A DNA stretch of 57,286 nt, from NCBI GenBank assembly GCA_964374115.1, contig CAYJXK010000002.1, positions 1-57,286 on the forward strand. The letters run 5' to 3'. Every line of letters starts with the position of its first letter. Within the stretch, counting starts at the first letter, position 1. The notes beneath the pieces are model-generated. The model saw nothing but the letters and a program-made list of their open reading frames with translations, was not told the origin of the DNA and did not search any database. Source of the stretch: an uncultured Gammaproteobacteria bacterium. GTDB taxonomy: Bacteria; Patescibacteriota; Patescibacteriia; Magasanikbacterales; UBA922. Shown piece after piece: positions 4,936-47,458 of this stretch. Position numbers and translations under genes: made by a program.

Positions 4936-6066
4936 ATGAAACAAAAGCCAAAGCAGAAAGTTCTCGTTGCCCTGTCCGGCGGTGTTGATTCATCTGTGGC
5001 CGCCGCTTTGCTCGTGGAAAAAGGATATGATGTGGTGGGAGCGTTTATGGTGCAATATGACGACAGTTCAGAGAGAGGAAAAAGATCATGTTGGCCAAAC
5101 GAGTATAGGGATGCCCTGCGTGTTGCCGCGCATCTTGGCATTCCATTGTTGAAATTTGATTTTACCAAAGCATATTCGAATCATGTCCTTGACTATCTGT
5201 ATCGGGAATATCAGGCAGGAAGGACGCCAAATCCTGATGTGTTGTGCAATACGTTTATTAAGTTTGGCGTATGGCTTGAAAAAGCAAAAGCCTTAGGTTT
5301 CTATTATTTGGCGACAGGACATTATGCGAGAATCAAGAAAACAATCCCTTATTTTTTTCACCTTCTGCAAGCCAAAGATACAAATAAAGATCAGACGTAT
5401 TTTTTGCATCAACTGAGTCAGAATCAACTTTCTCATGTCTTATTTCCTATCGGCGAGTATACAAAACCAGAAGTCCGGGCTCTCGCTCGAACATTTGGAT
5501 TGCCAACCGCGGGAAAAGAAGAAAGTATGGGGATTTGTTTTGTGGGAGAAGTATCAATGAAGGAATTTTTGAAGAAAAAAATCAAGGAGAAGCGTGGAAA
5601 TATTGTGACGTCATCTGGGCAGATCATTGGGAAGCATGATGGTTTGGCGTTTTATACGATTGGACAGAGGCACTTTGGAGTTCAGAGTTCGGCGTTCGGA
5701 GTTCAGAGCAAAGACAATCCTCCATTATTTGTGGCTGATAAACGAAGAAGGACAAACGAACTCGTTGTCGGCTTTGAGAATGATCCGTTGTTGTATAAAA
5801 AAGAAATCACCGTGACCGATGTTCATTGGGTGAGAGGTGGACAGGAGTCGCGGTTTCCATTAAAATGTGAAGTGCGACTGCGGCATCGACAGCCACTTCA
5901 AAAGTCTCAAGTCAAAAGTCTCAAGTCTCCGCCAAAGGCGGATCCGCGTCGGGCGAAAAAAGTCATCATTGTTGCATTTGATCATCCGCAACGCGCCGTG
6001 ACCCCGGGACAGTTCGCGGTATTTTATAAAAAAGGTGAATGTTTGGGGGGAGGAGTGATTGAGTGA
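4936..6066 (+). CDS. mnmA: tRNA 2-thiouridine(34) synthase MnmA
   Basis: PP-loop SGGVDSS, the NPDxxCN motif, and the C-terminal GQFAVFY...CLGGGVI. Confidence 0.95.
   Translation: MKQKPKQKVLVALSGGVDSSVAAALLVEKGYDVVGAFMVQYDDSSERGKRSCWPNEYRDALRVAAHLGIPLLKFDFTKAYSNHVLDYLYREYQAGRTPNPDVLCNTFIKFGVWLEKAKALGFYYLATGHYARIKKTIPYFFHLLQAKDTNKDQTYFLHQLSQNQLSHVLFPIGEYTKPEVRALARTFGLPTAGKEESMGICFVGEVSMKEFLKKKIKEKRGNIVTSSGQIIGKHDGLAFYTIGQRHFGVQSSAFGVQSKDNPPLFVADKRRRTNELVVGFENDPLLYKKEITVTDVHWVRGGQESRFPLKCEVRLRHRQPLQKSQVKSLKSPPKADPRRAKKVIIVAFDHPQRAVTPGQFAVFYKKGECLGGGVIE
5678..5709 (+). repeat. Heptanucleotide tandem array inside mnmA (GAGTTCA|GAGTTCG|GCGTTCG|GAGTTCA|GAGC)
   Basis: The 7-bp period is read directly from the sequence. 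It is translated as FGVQSSAFGVQS. Confidence 0.8.
5902..5941 (+). repeat. Heptanucleotide array (AAGTCTC|AAGTCAA|AAGTCTC|AAGTCTC) plus the palindrome CCGCCAAAGGCGG, inside mnmA
   Basis: Four 7-bp units at 5902-5929 are followed by a 13-bp perfect palindrome at 5929-5941. Translated as KSQVKSLKSPPKAD. Confidence 0.85.
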
Positions 6067-29630: not shown

Positions 29631-29689
29631 AGAAAAAGAAGAAAAAATTACAACGAGAGTATATCAAGAAGAAAAAAATACGCAAGGGC

Positions 29690-29726
29690 ATGAAAAATAC
29701 GAAGGAGCTCGAAATGCGAGCTCCTT
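29690..29726 (-). terminator. Rho-independent terminator after the GH-like gene
   Basis: A 10-bp stem AAGGAGCTCG/CGAGCTCCTT with a 5-nt loop, followed on the minus strand by a T-rich tract (TCGTATTTTTC). Confidence 0.65.
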
Positions 29727-31371: not shown

Positions 31372-33927
31372 ATGCAAGAAAAAATAATCATTCGTGGGGC
31401 GCGAGAACATAATCTCAAAAATATTTCTTTGGAATTGCCACGCAATGCCATGATCGTGTTTACTGGTCTTTCTGGTTCAGGAAAGTCGTCTCTTGCGTTT
31501 GATACGATTTTTGCCGAAGGACAACGCCGGTATATTGAGAGTTTGTCCGCGTACGCGCGGCAATTTTTGGGTGGTCTTCAGAAGCCAGACGTGGATGAGA
31601 TTGAAGGGCTGTCTCCGGCGATTTCGATTAACCAAAAAGCCCATGGCGCCAATCCGCGCTCTACGGTCGCGACGATCACGGAAGTGTATGATTATCTTCG
31701 GGTGCTTTTCGCGCGTATCGGCAGTCCCTATTGTCCGCTGTGCGGAACAAAGATTGAAAAGATGACTGTGGATCAGATGATCGAGCGGATTTCAAAAAAA
31801 CAAGTCACCCCGCTCATCATTTTTTCTCCCGTCGTCCGAGGGAGGAAAGGGGAGTATTATCAAATGCTCTATGATATGTATAATTCTGGATTTCTCGAGG
31901 TGCGAGTGGATGGGAAAATGAAAAGTTTGCGTGAAAGGATTGTGTTGTCGAAGCACATCAAACATACGATTGAGATTGTTGTGGACAACATACCTTTCAT
32001 AAAACACAAAAAAGATGGGTCTTCTCTTCAAAGATTGACAGAAGCAGTCGAGACCGCTATAGACCTATCGAATGGTCTTTGCACTATTGCTTTTCCAGAT
32101 GGAAGTGAAGAGATTTTTAGTACCCAATATTCATGCCCAAATGATGGATTTAGTTTTCCAGAAATCGAGCCACGATTGTTTAGTTTCAATAGTCCTTATG
32201 GATATTGCACACGCTGCACGGGGCTTGGGACAAAAGAATTGTTCAGTGAAGACATATGCACACAATGCCGGGGGAAACGGTTGAGCGACACAGCTCTTTC
32301 TGTAAAAATTCAAAAGAAAAATATTTGGGAAATCACCGCCATGACGATTTATGAAGCAGGAGAATTTTTTCTCGAAGTCGAGGACAAACTGACTGAAACA
32401 GAAAAAGAAATCGCCGGAGTAGCGATACGAGAAATACACAATCGTCTGAGATTTATGCTCGATGTGGGGCTTCATTATTTGACACTTCATCGAACCGCGG
32501 GAACACTTTCGGGCGGAGAAGCGCAACGGATTCGTCTTGCTTCGCAAGTAGGTCAAAAGTTAGTTGGCGCTCTGTATGTGCTCGACGAGCCCACGATTGG
32601 CTTGCATCAAAAAGATAATGAGCAATTAGTGCGGACGCTCAGAAATCTTTGTGATGTCGGCAATACCATTGTTATAGTCGAACATGACGAAGATACGATT
32701 CTCGCGAGTGATTGGATCGTGGATATTGGGCCAGGAGCAGGAAAACATGGAGGAGAGATTGTGTATTCAGGACCCTTGGTCACGCTTTTGAAAGAAAAAA
32801 GTCAAAAGTCTAAAAATTTTGAGTGCCAAATTGCTGGAGACGCAAACACGTCTCTCACTGGTCAGTATCTTCGAGGTGAAAAATCTGTTCCTCTTCCTGA
32901 GAAGCGCCGAAAAGTAGATGGGTCAACACCGAAATTGAAACTTATTGGCGCTGAAGAAAATAATCTTAAACATCTTACGCTCGAGATTCCATTGCGTCGG
33001 CTTATTTGTCTCACCGGCGTATCTGGATCTGGAAAGTCCACGTTGATGCATTCTATTTTGTATCGTGCGATTGCGAATCGTCTGAATCACACGCGATATA
33101 CCGTCGGCAAACACAAAGATATCAAAGGGCTTGAATATATTGATCGTATCATTGAGATTGACCAGAGTCCGATTGGTCGCACGCCCCGGAGTAATCCGGC
33201 GACATATACCAAGGCGTTCGATCACATTCGCGATTTGTTTGCCGCAACGCCAGAAGCAAGAATTCGTGGATACAAAAAAGGGCGATTTAGTTTCAATCAA
33301 AAAGGTGGGCGATGCGAGCAGTGCGAAGGACGGGGGACGATTGAAATCGAAATGCATTTTTTGCCGAGTGTGGAAATCGTCTGCGATGCGTGCAAAGGCA
33401 AACGTTTTACGCAAGAGACACTCCTCGTTCATTACAAAGAAAAAAATATTTTTGAAATTCTATCAATGACGATCGAAGACGCCAAAATTTTTTTTGAGGA
33501 TATTCCACACATTTATGATATACTCAACATGTTGAACAACGTGGGTCTCGATTATCTCACGCTTGGTCAATCTGCGACCACGCTCTCGGGTGGAGAGGCC
33601 CAGCGGATTAAGCTTAGCCGAGAGCTTGCCAAACGCGGAACCACGAAAACGCTCTATCTTCTTGATGAGCCTACCACCGGACTTCATTATGATGATGTGC
33701 GCAAACTCATTGATGTGCTCCAGCGCCTCGTGGGCCAAGGAAATACGGTGATGGTGATCGAGCACAATTTGGACGTGATCAAATGCGCGGATTGGATTAT
33801 TGATCTCGGGCCGGAGGGAGGAGATCGGGGTGGGGAACTCGTGGCTGTCGGGCGGCCGGAAGATGTGGTACAATCCAGGAAAAGCCACACAGGACAATAT
33901 TTAAAAAATTTTCTTTCAATGTTATGA
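31372..33927 (+). CDS. uvrA: Excinuclease ABC subunit A
   Basis: Two ABC modules (GLSGSGKSS and GVSGSGKST; LSGGEAQR twice) and zinc-finger CxxC pairs. Confidence 0.96.
32799..32812 (+). repeat. Two AAGTCNA heptamers (AAGTCAA|AAGTCTA) inside uvrA
   Basis: Same unit family as in mnmA and murB. Translated as KSQKSK within a loop-like segment. Only two units, so this is weak. Confidence 0.4.
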
Positions 33928-36296: not shown

Positions 36297-37673
36297 GTGG
36301 AACATTCTTTGTTTCTTCAGCGTGTGCCAGCGCTTCCGGATGAGCCGGGAGTATATTTATTTTACAACAAAAGAAGAGAAATAGTGTATGTGGGCAAGGC
36401 AACATCGCTCAAGAATCGCGTAAGAAGTTATTTCGCTCCACAAGGATCAGCGCGTCCCATCGAGTGGCTTTTCCATGAGGTCGTGGATTTGAAGACTGAA
36501 AAGACAGCATCTGTGCTCGAAGCAATCATTCTCGAATCGATCTACATCAAAAAGTTTCAGCCAGTATACAATGTGATTGGCAAGGATGATAAAAGTTGGA
36601 ATTATCTTGTCATGAGCAATGAGATGTATCCAACACTTCGCGCCATTCGAGAGCATGATCTTGAAGGAAAGTATCGATCTGAGGCTATCGGTTTCACACG
36701 AGAACCATCGGATCGACTCACTGGGGCGATGAAAAAAGATTTTTTATATCTTTTCGGTCCATTTCCTGGGTTGAACGCAAAGGCAACCATGCAAATATTG
36801 CGGCGATTATTTTATTTTTCGACCTGTCAACAAAGACGATCGGGGAAGAAAAATTCCGTTCACACCCGCTCCCTCCACAGGGGATGGCACGGGAGGGGTC
36901 CGTGTTTTTATTACCAAATCAAACAGTGTCTTGGTGTATGCACGGGCGAGATAACACCAAAAGAATATCAACAAAAAGTGATTCGGCCGCTTGTTCTTTT
37001 TTTGAAAGGAAAGAAGATGAGTGTTATTCGGACGCTTGAAAAAGAAATGAAAGTTGCGGTGCGGCGGGAAGATTTCGAAGAGGCGGCGCGTGTTCGTGAT
37101 CAACTGTCTCATTTGGAGCGGATCGAGGATGTCGCGCTCATGAACGCGTCGTTTTTTTCCGACCAATCCGCTTCGGGTGGATCGGGCGGGAGAATGAAAA
37201 AAATAGAAGGGTACGATATCTCAAACCTCGGCTCAACCGGCGCTGTTGGGAGCATGGCGGTATTTGTGTTTGGTGAACCAGACAAAAGCCAATATCGTCG
37301 ATTTCGCATCAAAACAGTAGTGGGCCAAAGCGATGTGGATTGTTTGGAGGAAGTCATCCGAAGACGTTTGAGACATGCTGATTGGCCACTGCCAAATCTT
37401 TTCCTCATTGACGGCGGCAAACCGCAAGTGAATCGAATACAAAAAGTGTTCAAAGAATGCTCGGTGCATATTCCCATCGTCGGGATTGCCAAAGGGCCGG
37501 AACGAAAGCGAAACGATATCTTGATTGCAAATGATTCTTCTTTTGGTTCAAATGATGCCAACAATAGAATCATGATTCGATGGATTCAGAACAACCAAAA
37601 CCTTCTCATTCGAGTTCGAGACGAAGCGCATCGGTTTGCGCTTGTGTATCAGAGGAAGACGAGGCAGTTGTGA
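36297..37673 (+). CDS. uvrC: Excinuclease ABC subunit C
   Basis: GIY-YIG (PGVYLFY...IVYVGKA), a UVR domain (EEAARVRDQL) and the RNase H-like endonuclease domain. GTG start. No C-terminal (HhH)2 domain is apparent. Confidence 0.9.
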   Translation: MEHSLFLQRVPALPDEPGVYLFYNKRREIVYVGKATSLKNRVRSYFAPQGSARPIEWLFHEVVDLKTEKTASVLEAIILESIYIKKFQPVYNVIGKDDKSWNYLVMSNEMYPTLRAIREHDLEGKYRSEAIGFTREPSDRLTGAMKKDFLYLFGPFPGLNAKATMQILRRLFYFSTCQQRRSGKKNSVHTRSLHRGWHGRGPCFYYQIKQCLGVCTGEITPKEYQQKVIRPLVLFLKGKKMSVIRTLEKEMKVAVRREDFEEAARVRDQLSHLERIEDVALMNASFFSDQSASGGSGGRMKKIEGYDISNLGSTGAVGSMAVFVFGEPDKSQYRRFRIKTVVGQSDVDCLEEVIRRRLRHADWPLPNLFLIDGGKPQVNRIQKVFKECSVHIPIVGIAKGPERKRNDILIANDSSFGSNDANNRIMIRWIQNNQNLLIRVRDEAHRFALVYQRKTRQL

Positions 37674-37711
37674 GAGGACACTCTTTGATATATACTTTTT
37701 CATGAAGTCTT

Positions 37712-38662
37712 ATGGATCACATATATCAGATGTTGAAACAATTTGGTCATGTCACACTTCACGAATTCCTTGCCAAGCATACAACATTTAAAATTGGCGG
37801 ACAGGCTGACTATTTTGTGACGGCAAAAAGTACGGATGATTTGATAGAATTGCTCAAATATCTCGATCAAGAAGGCACACCGTATTTTATTTTGGGTGGG
37901 GGAAGTAATGTTTTGGTGAGGGATGATGGATTTGATGGGGTCGTGGTAAAAGTCCGAAGTCAGAAGTCCGAAGTCAGAAGTCCATTTCTTGAAGCCGATG
38001 CAGGGTGTGTTACGGTTGAAATGGCACAACAATCAATCAAAGCAGAGCTGACGGGATTTGAGTGGGGTGTCGGAGTGCCCGGGACGATTGGTGGAGCGGT
38101 GCGAGGCAATGCCGGGGCAATGGATGGAGAGATGAAAGATGTTGTTGAATCAGTTGATGTATATCAAGATGGAGAAGTCGTAACGCTTTCGAATACAGCA
38201 TGCGAGTTTCGTTATCGAGATAGTGTGTTTAAACATGGGGGCGGTGTTGTTTTGAGAGCGAGGTTACGGTTGAGGATAAAAGAAAAAAAAGATGAAGCAG
38301 GCATAAAAAAAGCACTTGAATATCTACAGTATCGCAGTAAAACACAGCCTCAGGGGTGGGCGAATACAGGATGTATTTTTAAAAACAGTCATCAGCTATC
38401 AGCCATCAGCCATCAAATTGAAATGCCAAAAGAATTCATTCAGAAGGGCAAAATTCCTGCGGGATGGTTGGTAGAAAAGGCTGGGATGAAAGGGGCACAA
38501 GTCGGGAACGCAAAGGTGAGCGATGTGCATGGGAATTTTATTGTGAATATGGGTGGAGCAACCGCGGCCGATGTGTCGGCACTTATTGAAAAGGTGAAAG
38601 GGGCAGTGTATACTCGATGTGGGGTAGTGCTAGAAGAAGAAATACAGATTCTTGGAAATTAG
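37712..38662 (+). CDS. murB: UDP-N-acetylenolpyruvoylglucosamine reductase
   Basis: FAD-binding domain (HTTFKIGGQADYF, ILGGGSN) and C-terminal SAGWLVEKAGMKG...HGNFIVN. Confidence 0.94.
   Translation: MDHIYQMLKQFGHVTLHEFLAKHTTFKIGGQADYFVTAKSTDDLIELLKYLDQEGTPYFILGGGSNVLVRDDGFDGVVVKVRSQKSEVRSPFLEADAGCVTVEMAQQSIKAELTGFEWGVGVPGTIGGAVRGNAGAMDGEMKDVVESVDVYQDGEVVTLSNTACEFRYRDSVFKHGGGVVLRARLRLRIKEKKDEAGIKKALEYLQYRSKTQPQGWANTGCIFKNSHQLSAISHQIEMPKEFIQKGKIPAGWLVEKAGMKGAQVGNAKVSDVHGNFIVNMGGATAADVSALIEKVKGAVYTRCGVVLEEEIQILGN
37950..37984 (+). repeat. Five-unit heptanucleotide array inside murB (AAGTCCG|AAGTCAG|AAGTCCG|AAGTCAG|AAGTCCA)
   Basis: Read directly from the sequence. Translated as KVRSQKSEVRSP. 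Confidence 0.85.
38386..38413 (+). repeat. Four-unit heptanucleotide array inside murB (CAGTCAT|CAGCTAT|CAGCCAT|CAGCCAT)
   Basis: Read directly from the sequence. Translated as SHQLSAISHQ. Confidence 0.8.
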
Positions 38663-38677
38663 GTTCATGTTTCAACT

Positions 38678-39022
38678 ATGATCATCACCATCCATGGCAG
38701 TGGCATCGAACTCACGGATGCCCTCAGGCAATACGCGGAGGAAAAAGTGCAAACACTTACCAAACATTTTGATAATATTCAGAAAGCGGAAATAGATATT
38801 GGCCTACGCACGCATCATCATCAAAAAGGAGATATTTATTACGCGGAAGTAAATTTATGTGTTCCGCAGCATGTGCTCCGTGTCGTCAAAGAAGAGGCAG
38901 ACTTGTATAAAGCGATTGACAAGGTGAAAGATCATTTGAAAATGGAATTGGAAAAAATGAAGGGCAAGATGCGGGCGAAGAACAAACGTGTGCTTCGGGA
39001 AAACAAAGAATACCACACATAG
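38678..39022 (+). CDS. hpf: Ribosome hibernation promoting factor (HPF/RaiA, S30AE family), short form
   Basis: MIITIHGSGIELTDALRQYAEEKV...LYKAIDKV is typical of HPF. Confidence 0.88.
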   Translation: MIITIHGSGIELTDALRQYAEEKVQTLTKHFDNIQKAEIDIGLRTHHHQKGDIYYAEVNLCVPQHVLRVVKEEADLYKAIDKVKDHLKMELEKMKGKMRAKNKRVLRENKEYHT

Positions 39023-39109
39023 TCGCATGACGCATGCCATAAATTCACGACGTATCATGAAGATGAAAGGGAAGTCCAGAGACTTCCCTTTGCGTTCCTC
39101 CCATTGTTT

Positions 39110-39283
39110 CTATGGCAGGATCGGACCACGTGGCGTGTTCTGCCGCACATACACGCATGCTTCGCATCGGCATGGTTGTTCTCCGAGTCCGCAATCAGTA
39201 AGGTGGCCGCAGAGCGCGCATGTGTCTTTCCCGACCCCCCCAATGGGCCGAGCACATGCCCGACATGTTTTTTCTTTTTTCAT
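39110..39283 (-). CDS. Cys-rich 57-aa protein (8 Cys; CxxC-x10-CxxC plus CxCxxC)
   Basis: MKKEKTCRACARPIGGVGKDTCALCGHLTDCGLGEQPCRCEACVYVRQNTPRGPILP*. A strong SD (AAGGAG) lies 6 nt upstream and a promoter is present. The segment is G+C-rich. Confidence 0.6.
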   Translation of the reverse strand: MKKEKTCRACARPIGGVGKDTCALCGHLTDCGLGEQPCRCEACVYVRQNTPRGPILP

Positions 39284-39306
39284 GCTAGCTCCTTTTCCCA
39301 GTTTGT

Positions 39307-39336
39307 AGTATAGAGAAAAGGATCTACATTTGTCCA
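39307..39336 (-). promoter_or_regulatory. Promoter candidate TGGACA-18-TATACT for the Cys-rich ORF
   Basis: Minus-strand hexamers at 39331-39336 and 39307-39312. Confidence 0.5.
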
Positions 39337-39541: not shown

Positions 39542-42427
39542 ATGTCTTGGTACACAAAAATTTTCGGCGATCCATCGAAAAAAGAGTTACAAAAATTGCA
39601 ACCCATCGTAGAAAAAATCAACCATCTTGAGCTTGAATATCAGGCGCTTTCAGATGAGGGATTGCGAGAGAAGACCGATACATTCAAAGTACGGTTGCAA
39701 CAGGGAGAAACCCTCGAGGATCTTATCCCGGAAGCATTCGCGGCAGTCCGCGAAGCATCCAGGCGCACCACAGGCATGCGTCATTTTGATGTCCAGCTTA
39801 TTGGGGGCATGGCTCTGCATCAGAGAAAGATCGCGGAAATGCGAACCGGAGAAGGAAAAACACTGGTTGCCACACTTCCGGCCTATCTCAACGCGCTTGA
39901 GGGAAAAGGGGTGCATATCGTGACCGTCAATGATTACCTCGCTCGCCGTGATGCGGTGTGGATGGGGCAGATTTATGATTTTTTGGGGATGCGTGTGGGT
40001 ATTGTTCAGAATTTGAGGATTTCGTATGTGTACAGTTCAGAATTCAGAGTGCAGAGTGCAGAGGAACAGGAAACATTGAAAGAGGGAAGTGATACAGATA
40101 AAGAACGAGACGAGATGGGTAGTTTCAAAGTAGAGTACGATTATCTACAATCCTGTTCGCGACAAGAGGCGTATCGTTGCGATATTACCTATGGCACGAA
40201 CAATGAATTTGGGTTTGATTATCTTCGCGACAACATGGTGCAAGATGTGTCGGAGATGGTGATGCGGCCTGGTGCGGAAATGCATTACGCCATTGTGGAT
40301 GAAATTGATTCTATTCTCATTGACGAGGCGAGGACTCCCCTTATTATCTCAACGCCAGCAGAAGAGGCAGGAGAGCAATATTATATGTTTGCCCGATTGG
40401 TGCGACAGCTCACAGAGCATGATGATTTCGCGATTGATGAAAAACTGCGGAGTGTCACGCTGACAGAATCAGGGATTGCAAAATTTGAGGAGTGGCTCGG
40501 CGTGGAAAATCTTTACGTCGAAGGCGGCATTCCAATGGTCCATCATATTGAACAGGCGCTCAAAGCCGAGTATCTTTTCAAACGTGATAAAGAATACGTC
40601 GTTGATATGGATGAAATTCTTATCATTGATGAATTTACCGGACGCAAAATGCCAGGGCGCAGATATTCCGAAGGACTGCACCAGGCGATCGAAGCGAAAG
40701 AAGGCGTCACGATCAAGCGCGAGAGCGTCACGCTTGCGACCATTACATTTCAAAATCTCTTCCGCATGTATCGTAAATTATCGGGCATGACTGGGACGGC
40801 AAAAACAGAGGAAGAAGAGTTTTATCGAATTTATGGACTTGAAGTATTTACGATTCCCACAAACAAATCCGATCACAGGTCTGATCACCCGGATCGCATT
40901 TATCGAAGTAACAGCGGCAAATACGCCGCGATCGTAGAAAAGATAAAAGAAGCCCAAACAAAATCGCAGCCACTCCTCATCGGCACCATCTCTGTAGAAA
41001 AAAATGAAGAGCTGAGCGCTTATTTGGATGCGAACGGCATTGCGCATGAAATTTTGAACGCGAAAAATCATGAACGTGAAGGAGAGATTATCGCGCAAGC
41101 CGGTCGGCCCGGCGCGGTGACACTCGCGACCAATATGGCAGGACGTGGTGTGGATATTAAGCTCGGAGGTAGCCCGGTGAATGAGGAAGAGGCAGTACGG
41201 GTCGTTGCCGCAGGCGGGCTTTTTGTACTCGGTACGGAGCGGCATGAGGCACGACGTATCGACAATCAACTTCGAGGGCGCGCGGCTCGTCAGGGCGATC
41301 CGGGTGAAACGCAATTTTTTGTGTCTACTGAAGACGATCTCATGCGTATTTTTGCGGGCGATCGGATGAAAGCGGTGATGACACGGCTCAAGGTTCCAGA
41401 AGACATGCCGATCGAACAGCGCATGATTACTCGCATGCTCGAAAGCGCGCAGAAAAAAGTAGAAGGATTTCATTTTGATTCGCGCAAACACGTGCTCCAG
41501 TACGACGATGTGCTCAATCGTCATCGCCATGTGATCTATACCAAGCGCCGGCAAATTCTTGAAATCGCTGCCAAAGCCGAAGGGGTTCTCGATCCTTTCA
41601 TCCAGCTTGTCACACTCGAAGAAGGCGATGTGCGTTATGATACACTCAAAGACATGATGCTCGAAATGATTGATGGAGAAATTGAGTTTCTGGTGAGTTT
41701 TCACACCATGATGCCCGGAGAAGAATCAGCAGATTTTTTGAGAGAGACAAAAGGATTATGGGATATGGAGGGAATTATAGAAGGAATCAAATCGATATTT
41801 CCAATGAAAAGCGAGGACATAGCGCATCTGCGCGAAACATTTAGACCAGCGGCAATGGGCAACAAAAGCACAATAGAACACAAAGATGCCATGATTCAGT
41901 TTATAGCTCAAAAAGCCCGCGCCGAGTATGCGCTTATTGAAGAAAAGATGCGGACAGTGGGCGATGGGCAAGCGGAAGCTGGTAATCGTCTGATGCAAGG
42001 GGTCGAGCGCAGTGTTCTTATTCGAGCGATTGACACGCTCTGGGTTGAACATTTAGTTTCTGTGGATTATCTGCGCACCGGCATTGGTCTTCGTGGTTAT
42101 GGGCAACGCGATCCACTGATTGAATACAAAAAAGAAGCATATCGTTTATTCCAGGAGTTGCTTGGCAATATTCAAAAAGAAGTGGTGACGTCATTTTTCA
42201 AAATTGGGCTCGGGATTCAAATGGCGCCGCGAATGATCGGCGAATTGGCGTTTGGTCCCTCGATTATGGCAAAAGACAAGATGGTGATGACTGGCGCCAA
42301 AAAATCGGAAGAAGAACATTTGGCTCCATCATCCACTCCTCGGTCAGCAGATGGAAAAAAAGTTGGGCGCAATGATCCGTGTCCGTGTGAAAGCGGCAGA
42401 AAGTACAAAAAGTGTCATGGGAAATAA
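39542..42427 (+). CDS. secA: Preprotein translocase ATPase SecA
   Basis: KIFGDPSKKELQK, MRTGEGKT, DEID/DEAR, and the C-terminal zinc tail CPCESGRKYKKCHG. The start was set at MSWYTKIFG. The upstream part of the ORF runs through a repeat. Confidence 0.96.
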   Translation: MSWYTKIFGDPSKKELQKLQPIVEKINHLELEYQALSDEGLREKTDTFKVRLQQGETLEDLIPEAFAAVREASRRTTGMRHFDVQLIGGMALHQRKIAEMRTGEGKTLVATLPAYLNALEGKGVHIVTVNDYLARRDAVWMGQIYDFLGMRVGIVQNLRISYVYSSEFRVQSAEEQETLKEGSDTDKERDEMGSFKVEYDYLQSCSRQEAYRCDITYGTNNEFGFDYLRDNMVQDVSEMVMRPGAEMHYAIVDEIDSILIDEARTPLIISTPAEEAGEQYYMFARLVRQLTEHDDFAIDEKLRSVTLTESGIAKFEEWLGVENLYVEGGIPMVHHIEQALKAEYLFKRDKEYVVDMDEILIIDEFTGRKMPGRRYSEGLHQAIEAKEGVTIKRESVTLATITFQNLFRMYRKLSGMTGTAKTEEEEFYRIYGLEVFTIPTNKSDHRSDHPDRIYRSNSGKYAAIVEKIKEAQTKSQPLLIGTISVEKNEELSAYLDANGIAHEILNAKNHEREGEIIAQAGRPGAVTLATNMAGRGVDIKLGGSPVNEEEAVRVVAAGGLFVLGTERHEARRIDNQLRGRAARQGDPGETQFFVSTEDDLMRIFAGDRMKAVMTRLKVPEDMPIEQRMITRMLESAQKKVEGFHFDSRKHVLQYDDVLNRHRHVIYTKRRQILEIAAKAEGVLDPFIQLVTLEEGDVRYDTLKDMMLEMIDGEIEFLVSFHTMMPGEESADFLRETKGLWDMEGIIEGIKSIFPMKSEDIAHLRETFRPAAMGNKSTIEHKDAMIQFIAQKARAEYALIEEKMRTVGDGQAEAGNRLMQGVERSVLIRAIDTLWVEHLVSVDYLRTGIGLRGYGQRDPLIEYKKEAYRLFQELLGNIQKEVVTSFFKIGLGIQMAPRMIGELAFGPSIMAKDKMVMTGAKKSEEEHLAPSSTPRSADGKKVGRNDPCPCESGRKYKKCHGK
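40034..40061 (+). repeat. Four-unit heptanucleotide array inside secA (AGTTCAG|AATTCAG|AGTGCAG|AGTGCAG)
   Basis: Read directly from the sequence, with degenerate continuation to about 40075. Translated as SSEFRVQSAEE. Confidence 0.8.
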
Positions 42428-45775: not shown

Positions 45776-45937
45776 ATGTCTGATCATTTCGTTCGTCATC
45801 TCATCTCGTTTGTCGTCACACTCGTTTCCTTTCTTATTTTTTGGGTTGGATACATGTCTGGGACATATCGATGGGGGTGGGCAGCCATCTCGGTTCTTGT
45901 CATGTACGTGATTATTTATAAGCTTTTGGATATTTAG
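45776..45937 (+). CDS. Possible 53-aa two-TM protein
   Basis: Hand translation gives MSDHFVRHLISFVVTLVSFLIFWVGYMSGTYRWGWAAISVLVMYVIIYKLLDI*. It is below the ORF-track cut-off. The alternative frame, 45660..45911, looks non-coding. Confidence 0.35.
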   Translation: MSDHFVRHLISFVVTLVSFLIFWVGYMSGTYRWGWAAISVLVMYVIIYKLLDI

Positions 45938-45980
45938 CCAATAGCCAATAATTTTCTACTGGTTATTGGTTATGAATCCA
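45938..45980. repeat. Hairpin built from inverted heptamers (CCAATAG|CCAATAA ... CTGGTTA|TTGGTTA)
   Basis: AGCCAATAA pairs with TTATTGGTT (8/9). Both arms show a 7-bp period. Confidence 0.5.
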
Positions 45981-45985
45981 TCAGT

Positions 45986-47458
45986 ATGTCCCTCGGCGCT
46001 CTCTTTACCACCATTCTGAATGGCACTGCCAATTTTTTCGCGCAACCTGCTCCGGCAGTTATTTTTCAGCTTTTTGTCATGGGAGGATGGGCTATTTTTG
46101 CTTGGCTACTTCTCTATGCCGCTTTTTACGTCCATGTCTATGATTACAAACATGACAAGGCAATCAAAAATTGGCAGTGGGTATTATTGGCAATTGATAT
46201 TCCTCCGCTCAATGTGCAGACGCCAAAAGCAGTGGAACAATTGTTTGCACATCTCGCAGGAGCGCTTCAAAAACCTGATATCGCGCAGCGATTTCGCCAC
46301 GGCTTCAAACAGCGGTGGTTCAGTTTTGAAATTATTAGCATCGAAGGATACATTCAATTTTTGATTCGCACAGAAGTGATGCTTCGAGATCTTGTTGAGT
46401 CTGCCATATATGCGCAATATCCAGAAGCAGAGATCACAGAAGTCGAGGATTATGTTGAGAGTGTGCCAGATCATTTTCCGAACGATACACATGATATCTG
46501 GGCGGCTGATTTCGCGCTCGCGGAAAAAGACGCATTTCCGATTCGAACGTATCGAGAGTTTGAGCACACTATTTCCAAAGATACCATTCTCAAAGACCCG
46601 ATGGGGACATTTTTGGAAAGTTTTACGCGGATCGGTCCTGGCGAACAAGTCTGGTTTCAGATCATTGTGGAACCGATTTCGAATAGCTGGAAAGAAAAGG
46701 CAATCCAGAAAGTGCAAGAGCTGATCGGGGACACGACTGCTCACGCGCATGGAAAGAAAAATATCTCGGATATGATCGCCGATCTGCCTATCAAACTCCT
46801 TGGGGGTGTGAGTGATCGGATATTCGGTGCTCTGGGAGAAACCGCCACCCATGTGGTAGAGAAGCCCGAGGAACCAAACAAGATTCGTTATCTCACCCCT
46901 GGACAAACAAAAGTGGTGGAAGCGATTGAAGAGAAGATCAGTAAAATTGGGTTCAAAACCAAAATGCGGGCAATCTATGTCGCGAAAAAACAATTGTTTC
47001 GGCCAGAACGAGCCGTGAACGCGATTATCGGGGCGATCAATCAGTTCAACATTCCCAGCGCGAATTCAATTATCCCAAAATTTGGGGTGCGGACGTCGTA
47101 TTTGTTCAAAACATCGCGATCAAATTATAAGAAGACTCTTCTCATGAAAGCCTACATCAAGAGGAAACCGAAAACGGGCGCCACTCCGTTTATTCTCAAT
47201 ATCGAAGAGCTCGCGACTGTCTGGCATTTCCCCATGTCGCATGTAAAAACGCCGCTTTTGCAAAAAGCGATTGGCAAGCGCGCGGAGCCGCCCGCAGGGC
47301 TCCCTGTTGGGATACCGATCGGAATGGCAGAATCTCTTGGTGTGTCCGCAGCTTCTTTTGGAGAAAAGACAGAGGGGCAGAAAGAAGAGGGACGCGCGAC
47401 CTACCAGACGGATTCTGGAGATATCGGATATCGGGATGAGGATGTGAGGCTCGGGTGA
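45986..47458 (+). CDS. Conserved-looking hypothetical membrane protein (2 N-terminal TM segments plus a ~400-aa soluble domain)
   Basis: Long ORF with host-like composition. No family can be named from memory. Confidence 0.8.
   Translation: MSLGALFTTILNGTANFFAQPAPAVIFQLFVMGGWAIFAWLLLYAAFYVHVYDYKHDKAIKNWQWVLLAIDIPPLNVQTPKAVEQLFAHLAGALQKPDIAQRFRHGFKQRWFSFEIISIEGYIQFLIRTEVMLRDLVESAIYAQYPEAEITEVEDYVESVPDHFPNDTHDIWAADFALAEKDAFPIRTYREFEHTISKDTILKDPMGTFLESFTRIGPGEQVWFQIIVEPISNSWKEKAIQKVQELIGDTTAHAHGKKNISDMIADLPIKLLGGVSDRIFGALGETATHVVEKPEEPNKIRYLTPGQTKVVEAIEEKISKIGFKTKMRAIYVAKKQLFRPERAVNAIIGAINQFNIPSANSIIPKFGVRTSYLFKTSRSNYKKTLLMKAYIKRKPKTGATPFILNIEELATVWHFPMSHVKTPLLQKAIGKRAEPPAGLPVGIPIGMAESLGVSAASFGEKTEGQKEEGRATYQTDSGDIGYRDEDVRLG

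Follow-up and report, generated by a model that had tools for sequence, protein, structure and literature searches.

The question raised by the murB gene described here is how an essential gene can come to carry, at two internal positions of its reading frame, tandem arrays of a unit seven nucleotides (nt) long. The gene encodes UDP-N-acetylenolpyruvoylglucosamine reductase (MurB) and lies on a 57,286-nt stretch of DNA (contig CAYJXK010000002.1 of assembly GCA_964374115.1, positions 1 to 57,286; hereafter the window) from an uncultured bacterium that GTDB places in the Magasanikbacterales of the Patescibacteriota. murB is an intact open reading frame (ORF) of 316 amino acids (aa) on the plus strand (37712..38662), and it contains array 1 (37948..37984) at MurB site 1 and array 2 (38386..38415) at MurB site 2, both on the plus strand. 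These arrays are probably heptanucleotide simple sequence repeats (SSRs) that arose from native quasi-repeats, spread without change of length into tolerant codons and were filtered by selection, with rare in-frame gains of three units.

Array 1 consists of five units of the AAGTCMG type at 37950-37984, AAGTCCG AAGTCAG AAGTCCG AAGTCAG AAGTCCA, with the periodicity beginning at 37948, and encodes the peptide KVRSQKSEVRSP (K80-P91). Tandem Repeats Finder describes it as a 14-nt unit in 2.4 copies (100% match, score 68) and also as a 7-nt unit in 4.7 copies. The C/A differences between its units are synonymous where present (CGA/AGA for Arg, TCC/TCA for Ser), and the 14-nt superperiod is therefore ascribed to drift at silent positions after the array had formed. 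Array 2 has units different from those of array 1, CAGTCAT CAGCTAT CAGCCAT CAGCCAT CA, of which four occupy 38386-38413 while the period runs on to 38415; it encodes SHQLSAISHQ (S226-Q235) and is reported by the same program as a 7-nt unit in 4.3 copies (86% match, score 46). The conserved motif GCIFKN directly precedes it and the clade-conserved PxEFxxKGKIxAGWL follows. Both arrays, at 4.7 and 4.3 copies and in agreement with a lag-7 scan, hold at least four head-to-tail 7-nt copies, as do repeats of the long simple sequence repeat (LSSR) and short tandemly repeated repetitive (STRR) types. The unit letters, coordinates and translations given by an earlier note, which a model had drawn up from the letters of this DNA, were confirmed on re-reading the sequence, and both arrays are in frame.

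Homologues of the window MurB have the Pfam domains FAD_binding_4 (PF01565) and MurB_C (PF02873), and a PDB search with the protein matched MurB structures (E 1e-46). Its AlphaFold model, made with an input of 31 sequences, has a mean predicted local distance difference test (pLDDT) score of 81.6 and a template modelling (TM) score of 0.81 against MurB 4pyt. Array 1 covers in this model the end of strand 74-81, a turn at 82-85, strand 86-89 and a turn at 90-91, so that MurB site 1 is a well-predicted β-hairpin, and array 2 falls in a loop with a short helix (pLDDT about 85). The closest homologues are 64% identical and come from metagenome-assembled genomes (MAGs) named Candidatus Magasanikbacteria or Parcubacteria; with these as the top matches, no strain-level variants of MurB are present in the searched protein collection.

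The arrays are not a product of assembly. A Logan assembly of ERR4904391 (L205; contigs and loci other than the window carry L numbers), the only further contig with this protein, is 100% identical over window positions 37157-39332 (2176 nt, covering murB), and this identical independent contig, together with arrays at the same sites in 14 other assemblies, rules out an artefact. Neither array has an inverted partner within 37600-38800, and no RNA structure is seen at either (folding z-scores +2.07 for array 1 and +0.62 for array 2), so that no RNA or DNA hairpin was found at the murB arrays of the window. At both sites the protein has ordinary residues of a loop or hairpin, encoded by codons that happen to fall into a period, and we see no sign that the arrays have a function of their own beyond being translated as such.

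A lag-match scan requiring at least four copies and at least 80% matches found five period-7 arrays in the 57-kilobase (kb) window, where 400 triplet shuffles gave 0.01 on average, and no arrays at period 6 or at periods 8-12. The same period was absent from an Escherichia coli control of 50 kb that includes murB (zero arrays). A chance origin of the window arrays is thereby excluded, as the earlier note had held, and the active or formerly active process that it had suspected is borne out in the form of a period-7 process that is both genome-wide and lineage-wide. The latter became apparent from murB loci of relatives, 80 from GTDB species representatives and four found through exact-protein look-ups, an orthologue set that spans Magasanikbacteria, Uhrbacteria and related lineages. 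These loci (1.31 Mb) contain 64 period-7 arrays compared with 8, 5 and 8 at periods 6, 8 and 9, and in 83 murB orthologues 18 strong arrays have period 7, with periods 6 and 8 represented by one array each. Period 7 is over-represented against other periods and shuffles in the window and in its relatives alike.

Within murB the arrays recur at two hot spots. All 18 of the 18 strong arrays lie at the two sites known from the window, namely aa 78-93 (nine genomes) and aa 222-250 (seven genomes), and when weaker periodicity is admitted (at least 13/21 lag-7 matches), site 1 qualifies in 21 of 81 orthologues and control regions of murB in 0-2. The density of arrays is 0.224 per kb in murB and 0.040 per kb elsewhere in the loci, and their counts are over-dispersed among genomes (chi-square 240, 83 degrees of freedom, p 3e-17). 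The distribution is phylogenetically patchy: array bearers occur at scattered points of the MurB tree, strong arrays are mostly absent from the neighbours closest to them, and degenerate arrays in the same register persist in some neighbours (L010 beside L004, L040 beside L060, L009 and L071). None of the 83 murB orthologues is frameshifted at an array site. The sole broken copy is frameshifted near aa 55-60 (L038:5400-5760), outside both sites, and represents either an assembly error or a pseudogene. In another locus, L027, a masked run of N falls exactly at site 2.

The arrays have nevertheless left the length of the protein unchanged. Two alignments, one with 30 homologues and a second with 84 orthologues, reveal no extra residues at either murB array. 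Between GSN and the helix that follows ADAG, site 1 measures 43 residues in seven of the nine array bearers, the window among them, and in nearly all non-bearers, and the window is here 1-2 residues shorter than the PDB structures of Firmicutes MurB. Site 2 measures 49 aa in the window and 48-50 in the nearest array-free relatives. The earlier note had regarded the arrays as inserted or expanded residues within variable loops; instead, loops of equal length occur in close relatives whose DNA is not periodic there, an observation that the note itself had named as refuting, so that the insertion reading fails, and site 1 proved by alignment and AlphaFold model to be a hairpin of fixed length in which the sequence alone varies. 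An in-frame selfish insertion of the Rickettsia palindromic element type is likewise ruled out for the window, where there are neither extra residues nor a palindrome or hairpin.

At site 1 the 5' edge of the arrays is nearly constant (murB nt 227-239) and adjoins conserved residues, and the 3' end is variable (nt 263-278). Five genomes have a common register there, which reads AAA GTC CGA AGT CAG in the window, CAA GTC AAA AGT CAA in L050, AAA ATC AAA AAT CAA in L039, CAA ATC CGA AAT CCG in L072 and AAA CTC AAA ACT CAA in L018. As the heptamer requires, V co-varies with S, I with N and L with T, and perfect arrays bear different units by lineage (AAAGTCA, AAAATCA, AAATCCG and GTTCGCA). It follows that homogenisation in place is required, meaning that the arrays were made or kept periodic where they stand. 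Encoded as AAA NTC AAA ANT CAA, the motif K-[V/I]-K-[S/T]-Q of the family by itself comes close to two heptamers, and in non-bearers the lag-7 score at aa 80-82 is 3.2 out of 8, the mean over the gene being 2.12 (standard deviation 0.51).

Comparable hot spots exist in other proteins. The variable linker of SecA, between IQN..S.VY and G.FKVE, contains arrays in the window (AGTTCAG/AGTGCAG units, 40032..40065, plus strand, aa 187-198) as well as at L014:13055-13091, L080:6278-6315 and L084:11995-12101, and the L080 peptide AVRSQKSEVRE has the unit and frame of array 1 in the window MurB (VRSQKSEV in both). A Mur ligase has arrays at one position in three loci (L050:4483-4518, L014:3015-3049 and L039:3355-3392), with the unit AACCTAA, which contains TAA; its in-frame copy is the conserved Tyr codon TAT. 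The L050 ligase segment spans 52 aa, as in about 25 array-free orthologues, and in its peptide SKTYNLKPKT the native K-T-Y-N-L is kept and the following four residues are replaced at unchanged length. The L014 ligase is longer by 13 aa and the L039 ligase by 7 aa, exactly three units. This last case is the single instance, outside murB, in which the earlier note's prediction of length changes in multiples of three units held. A 230-aa protein also has period-7 arrays in L014 and L021.

The window carries two further arrays in mnmA, a gene identified by Pfam and PDB matches. The first belongs to a GAGTTCA family (5677..5708, plus strand; peptide GVQSSAFGVQ, aa 248-258), and the second, AAGTCTC AAGTCAA AAGTCTC AAGTCTC (5902..5929, plus strand; peptide KSQVKSLKS, aa 323-332), has the AAGTC core in common with array 1. 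The earlier note had placed the AAGTC unit in both mnmA and uvrA; this stands for mnmA, whereas uvrA has only a weak proto-array, AAGAAAA AAGTCAA AAGTC (32792..32810, plus strand), with two perfect copies and one degenerate copy. Eight more perfect two-copy heptamers are present in the window, mostly inside genes. At 45935-45973, at the start of the ORF 45986..47458, TAGCCAA TAGCCAA and TGGTTAT TGGTTAT stand about 10 nt apart and, judged by their letters, look like a partly complementary pair. Tandem Repeats Finder additionally reports a 19-nt repeat in 2.2 copies at 29674-29714 and a 17-nt repeat in 2.6 copies at 45785-45827.

Two observations concern MurB and its database records more generally. 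Positions 38372-38380 encode G220-C221-I222, and GCIFKN with an invariant Cys221 is found in the window and its closer relatives, while more distant orthologues and the PDB MurB proteins have GS(F/V)FKN, an apparent Ser-to-Cys change within a subclade. The Ser of this motif is the catalytic proton donor of MurB (Ser229 in E. coli). The title 'uncultured Gammaproteobacteria bacterium' is borne by many MAG records (e.g. L006, L010, L013, L016 and L017) in which MurB shares 40-61% identity with the Magasanikbacteria-like protein of the window; these titles look wrong.

The explanation favoured here starts from a tandem-repeat process specific for period 7 that would be active across this lineage of the candidate phyla radiation (Magasanikbacteria, Uhrbacteria and relatives). 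An array would begin at native codons that amount to a quasi-repeat of two units from the outset, at site 1 the K-[V/I]-K-[S/T]-Q motif. The repeat would then spread into adjacent codons, mostly through copying between out-of-register units, either by slipped pairing with correction or by template switching, and would overwrite the sequence while protein length is kept. Purifying selection would retain those arrays whose 7-residue periodic peptide suits a sequence-tolerant surface segment, and because only arrays in tolerant segments would be retained, the two MurB sites and their equivalents in SecA and the Mur ligase would appear as recurrent targets. Single-unit slips would be lost, since the reading frame would shift, and in-frame gains of three units would be occasional. 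The data show the specificity for period 7, the hot spots, the neutrality in length, the patchy phylogeny and the genome-specific unit families; the nucleation step is inferred from the fixed 5' edges and the native proto-repeat at site 1, and the mechanism of conversion or template switching from arrangements such as the following in relatives.

In the L018 murB a block of about 95 nt, composed of an array, a 42-nt GC-rich hairpin (CACCCGCCTTCGTTCTCATGAACTACGGCGAGGCGAAGAAAC) and a second array, is present in frame at both sites (L018:9136-9236 and L018:9630-9726) with two mismatches in the core, and by its sequence is an apparent intragenic ectopic copy or a tiny mobile element. L021 has at murB site 2 (about nt 685-710) a 21-nt perfect hairpin, CCTGCCTG-CCGGA-CAGGCAGG, in frame beside an AAAGCCA array, which is an insertion relative to L078 (91% nt identity). 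Inverted array pairs occupy murB site 2 in L008 (L008:2743-2828, -40.5 kcal/mol, z -6.5) and L084 (L084:10670-10774, -53.3 kcal/mol, z -4.2), and L008 uses one unit pair at both of its sites. Template switching and ectopic copying in the clade are suggested by the L018 block, the inverted pairs and the L021 hairpin. Array pairs in inverted orientation are limited to L008, L084 and some intergenic sites, and the window murB has neither these nor hairpin blocks, as seen from the partner search and folding described above.

The units themselves form genome-specific families. Pairs of units lie within one mismatch of each other in 17% of cases within genomes and 5.8% between genomes (permutation p about 0.001), and single-linkage clustering is uninformative, as the units form a continuum. 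Single copies of the units outside arrays occur at about the Markov expectation for all ten units tried, in all rotations and on both strands, which rules out a dispersed motif under molecular drive of the kind known from uptake sequences. AAGTCNN is also rejected as a lineage-specific unit: it is found in at least 120 metagenome contigs with a GC content of 34-72%, and hence is not special to the Magasanikbacteria lineage. In metagenome contigs AAGTC-type arrays reach 276 nt (L133:598-873, L131:5184-5338 and L193:10336-10491), and the contigs listed contain at least 170 additional period-7 arrays beyond the AAGTCNN matches.

Several points weigh against the favoured explanation. Ongoing slippage or conversion is an inferred process, and a literature search yielded no direct experimental precedent for conversion between 7-nt units. 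Local slippage alone does not predict a preference for few unit families, yet ACCTA/CCTAA is preferred 16-18-fold over unrelated sites and genomes, and AAGTC and AACTA 9-fold each, the AAGTC core being about 9-fold enriched among the clade arrays; nor does purely local slippage predict that intergenic DNA has about five times the density of arrays. In murB itself, aa 117, 128 and 252 have equal or higher native lag-7 similarity than site 1 and never bear arrays. These equally periodic segments are conserved ones, from which it follows that nucleation alone explains little and that tolerance must do most of the work. Array 2 of the window, furthermore, has no obvious native proto-repeat.

The same unit preferences and intergenic density would be expected if the heptamers were functional cis-elements, that is, binding arrays in DNA or mRNA for OB-fold, cold-shock-type or S1-type proteins, selected even inside genes. 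This is unlikely on balance but has several observations to its credit. Intergenic arrays often stand directly after or before murB: they touch its stop in L017 (L017:10960-10988), L048 (L048:10940-10970), L058 (L058:10983-11011) and L079 (L079:1842-1911), and its start in L008 (L008:2043-2075). Their units are TAACTAR, TAGGTTT and A/T-rich ones, of which TAACTAR and TAGGTTT give stops in all frames. One unit in one frame is used by the window MurB and the L080 SecA, two different proteins, to give VRSQKSEV, and a regulatory role has been proposed for TAACTGA repeats, with CspB reported to bind heptamer repeats (PMC4679880). Against this reading, the two sites of the window murB have different units, the nearest relatives lack the arrays and single copies of the units show no excess outside arrays. 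RNA structure is absent from the window arrays (z +2.1 and +0.6), and the coding arrays, which make up 49 of 69 in the clade and all five in the window, are placed precisely in those segments of the protein where any sequence will do, as neutral passengers would be.

It is doubtful, too, that a lineage-specific, sequence-directed process writes a few preferred heptamer families (AACCTAA, AAGTCNN and TAACTAR) genome-wide and length-neutrally, including into tolerant codons of essential genes. Such a process could be ectopic conversion from array to array or a dedicated templated or enzymatic system, and the arrays might then serve as candidate binding arrays for a single-strand-binding or RNA-binding protein. 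If this were true, what is visible in murB would be the trace left by a genome-editing drive, so far undescribed, in bacteria of the candidate phyla radiation, and the arrays would gain considerably in importance if the unit preferences reflect such a directed process.

That pre-formed or expanding heptamer arrays lengthened the murB loops, as in the earlier note, is improbable, and for the window murB this model is already contradicted, both segments having exactly the length of those in the nearest array-free relatives. Longer segments do occur in some relatives, by 18 aa in L018 and 9 aa in L050 at site 1 and at site 2 in L008, L084 and L018, and the L039 ligase has gained three units; the segment around site 2 is also about 19 aa longer than in Firmicutes MurB. 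This clade-wide extra segment, however, is the conserved PEEFxxKGKISAGWL, which lies outside the array, the additional DNA in L018 and L021 is GC-rich hairpin rather than heptamer units, and most site 1 bearers are length-neutral, as noted above.

A remnant of one old ancestral array per site that is decaying in most lineages has a similarly low probability. It draws on the register common to L050, L039, L072, L018 and the window, on the degenerate arrays in neighbours (L010, L040, L052 and L009) and on the persistence of arrays beyond synonymous saturation, L004 and L010 having a third-position identity of 47%. Independent decay cannot, however, yield perfect arrays with different units in different lineages, the mean residual lag-7 signal in non-bearers is weak (0.30 against about 0.26), and in Firmicutes MurB, where this segment is also present, no peptide of the array type is seen. 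Simple decay of a single ancestral array is rejected on the first two of these points.

Highly improbable is a phase-variable contingency locus in which gain or loss of one 7-nt unit toggles murB off and on. The unit length is indivisible by three, as in known phase-variable repeats, and heptanucleotide repeats serve in this way in Haemophilus influenzae according to the account in PMC2651432. Contingency repeats, however, lie in the promoter or 5' part of genes that are dispensable and usually encode surface structures, whereas murB, secA and mnmA are core housekeeping genes, a murB-off cell could not switch back because it could not grow, and the arrays are internal to a cytoplasmic enzyme (aa 80-91 and 226-235) and neither at the 5' end nor in the promoter. 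The array sites, moreover, are free of frameshifts in all orthologues, the L038 break lying elsewhere.

The arrays show that microsatellites can persist within the cores of essential enzymes even when their unit length is indivisible by three, and that they recur at the same structural positions over deep divergence. On the favoured explanation they would illustrate, in a clean natural case, how repeats are born and evolve in concert when frame and length are constrained, with codons mostly overwritten and not added. They also mark, from sequence alone, the surface segments of MurB, SecA and Mur ligases that tolerate mutation. They represent a repeat class undescribed for the candidate phyla radiation, which may confuse gene callers, alignment-based phylogeny and assembly.

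Among known systems, the Rickettsia palindromic elements attributed to work of Ogata and colleagues from 2000 are said to be in-frame palindromic insertions of 100-150 bp that add residues to protein genes. They have in common with the murB arrays that repetitive DNA is tolerated in essential genes at surface-exposed, sequence-tolerant positions; unlike them, the window arrays add no residues and are not palindromic, and only the L018 and L021 hairpin inserts resemble them. In Borgs the in-ORF units are reportedly multiples of three and expand the protein. The murB unit of 7 nt is not divisible by three, and the arrays are rejected as Borg-type amino-acid tandem repeats on this ground. Perfect nucleotide tandem repeats in ORFs with periodic peptides in tolerant regions are nevertheless a shared feature, and the Borg repeats are described as creating new disordered regions (PMC9879509).

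The TAACTGA direct repeats of marine Beggiatoaceae, cyanobacteria and Bacteroidetes are likewise present in 2-6 copies, often beside start or stop codons and in some cases in ORFs (PMC4679880). Their in-ORF copies are found at protein termini or in hypothetical proteins (PMC4679880), whereas MurB, SecA, MnmA and a Mur ligase carry the clade arrays in internal loops. The clade's intergenic units TAACTAG, TAACTAA and GAACTAA are 1-2 bases from TAACTGA, but the clade has no single dominant unit. Unit sequences of the STRR heptamers of Calothrix PCC 7601 reportedly differ from those of the clade. These cyanobacterial heptamers resemble the clade arrays in forming lineage-specific tandem families in both orientations, and differ in being reported as intergenic, without described hot spots in essential genes (PMC4692102). 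The GGGAATC/GGGGAYT repeats of Xanthomonas and Nostoc (PMC4692102) are also heptameric, prefer about four units and exist as inverted pairs; the clade arrays, unlike these, are A-rich or mixed and lack G-tracts.

In many bacterial genomes no class of long SSRs is more abundant than heptanucleotide repeats, an excess for which slippage of the polymerase across a 7-nt contact has been proposed (Mrazek et al. 2007, as summarised in PMC4679880; for abundance also PMC4692102). The clade arrays match these LSSRs, as far as that summary describes them, in their tandem 7-nt units of about 4-6 copies, in the excess of period 7 and in a lineage-dependent abundance. In the same summary LSSRs are mainly intergenic, with units that are not multiples of three disfavoured in genes, whereas most clade arrays (49 of 69, with intergenic DNA nevertheless about five times denser in arrays) are coding and lie inside core enzymes at orthologous internal sites, mostly length-neutrally. 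The named heptamer families (cyanobacterial STRRs, TAACTGA and GGGAATC) are also described as mainly intergenic (PMC4679880, PMC4692102), and the literature search found no report of heptamer arrays in Patescibacteria, nor did any paper that it returned deal with the candidate phyla radiation. The tandem 7-nt unit and the period-7 excess are shared with known heptanucleotide repeats, from which the murB arrays differ in their location in internal loops of core enzymes, their recurrence at orthologous positions and their length neutrality.

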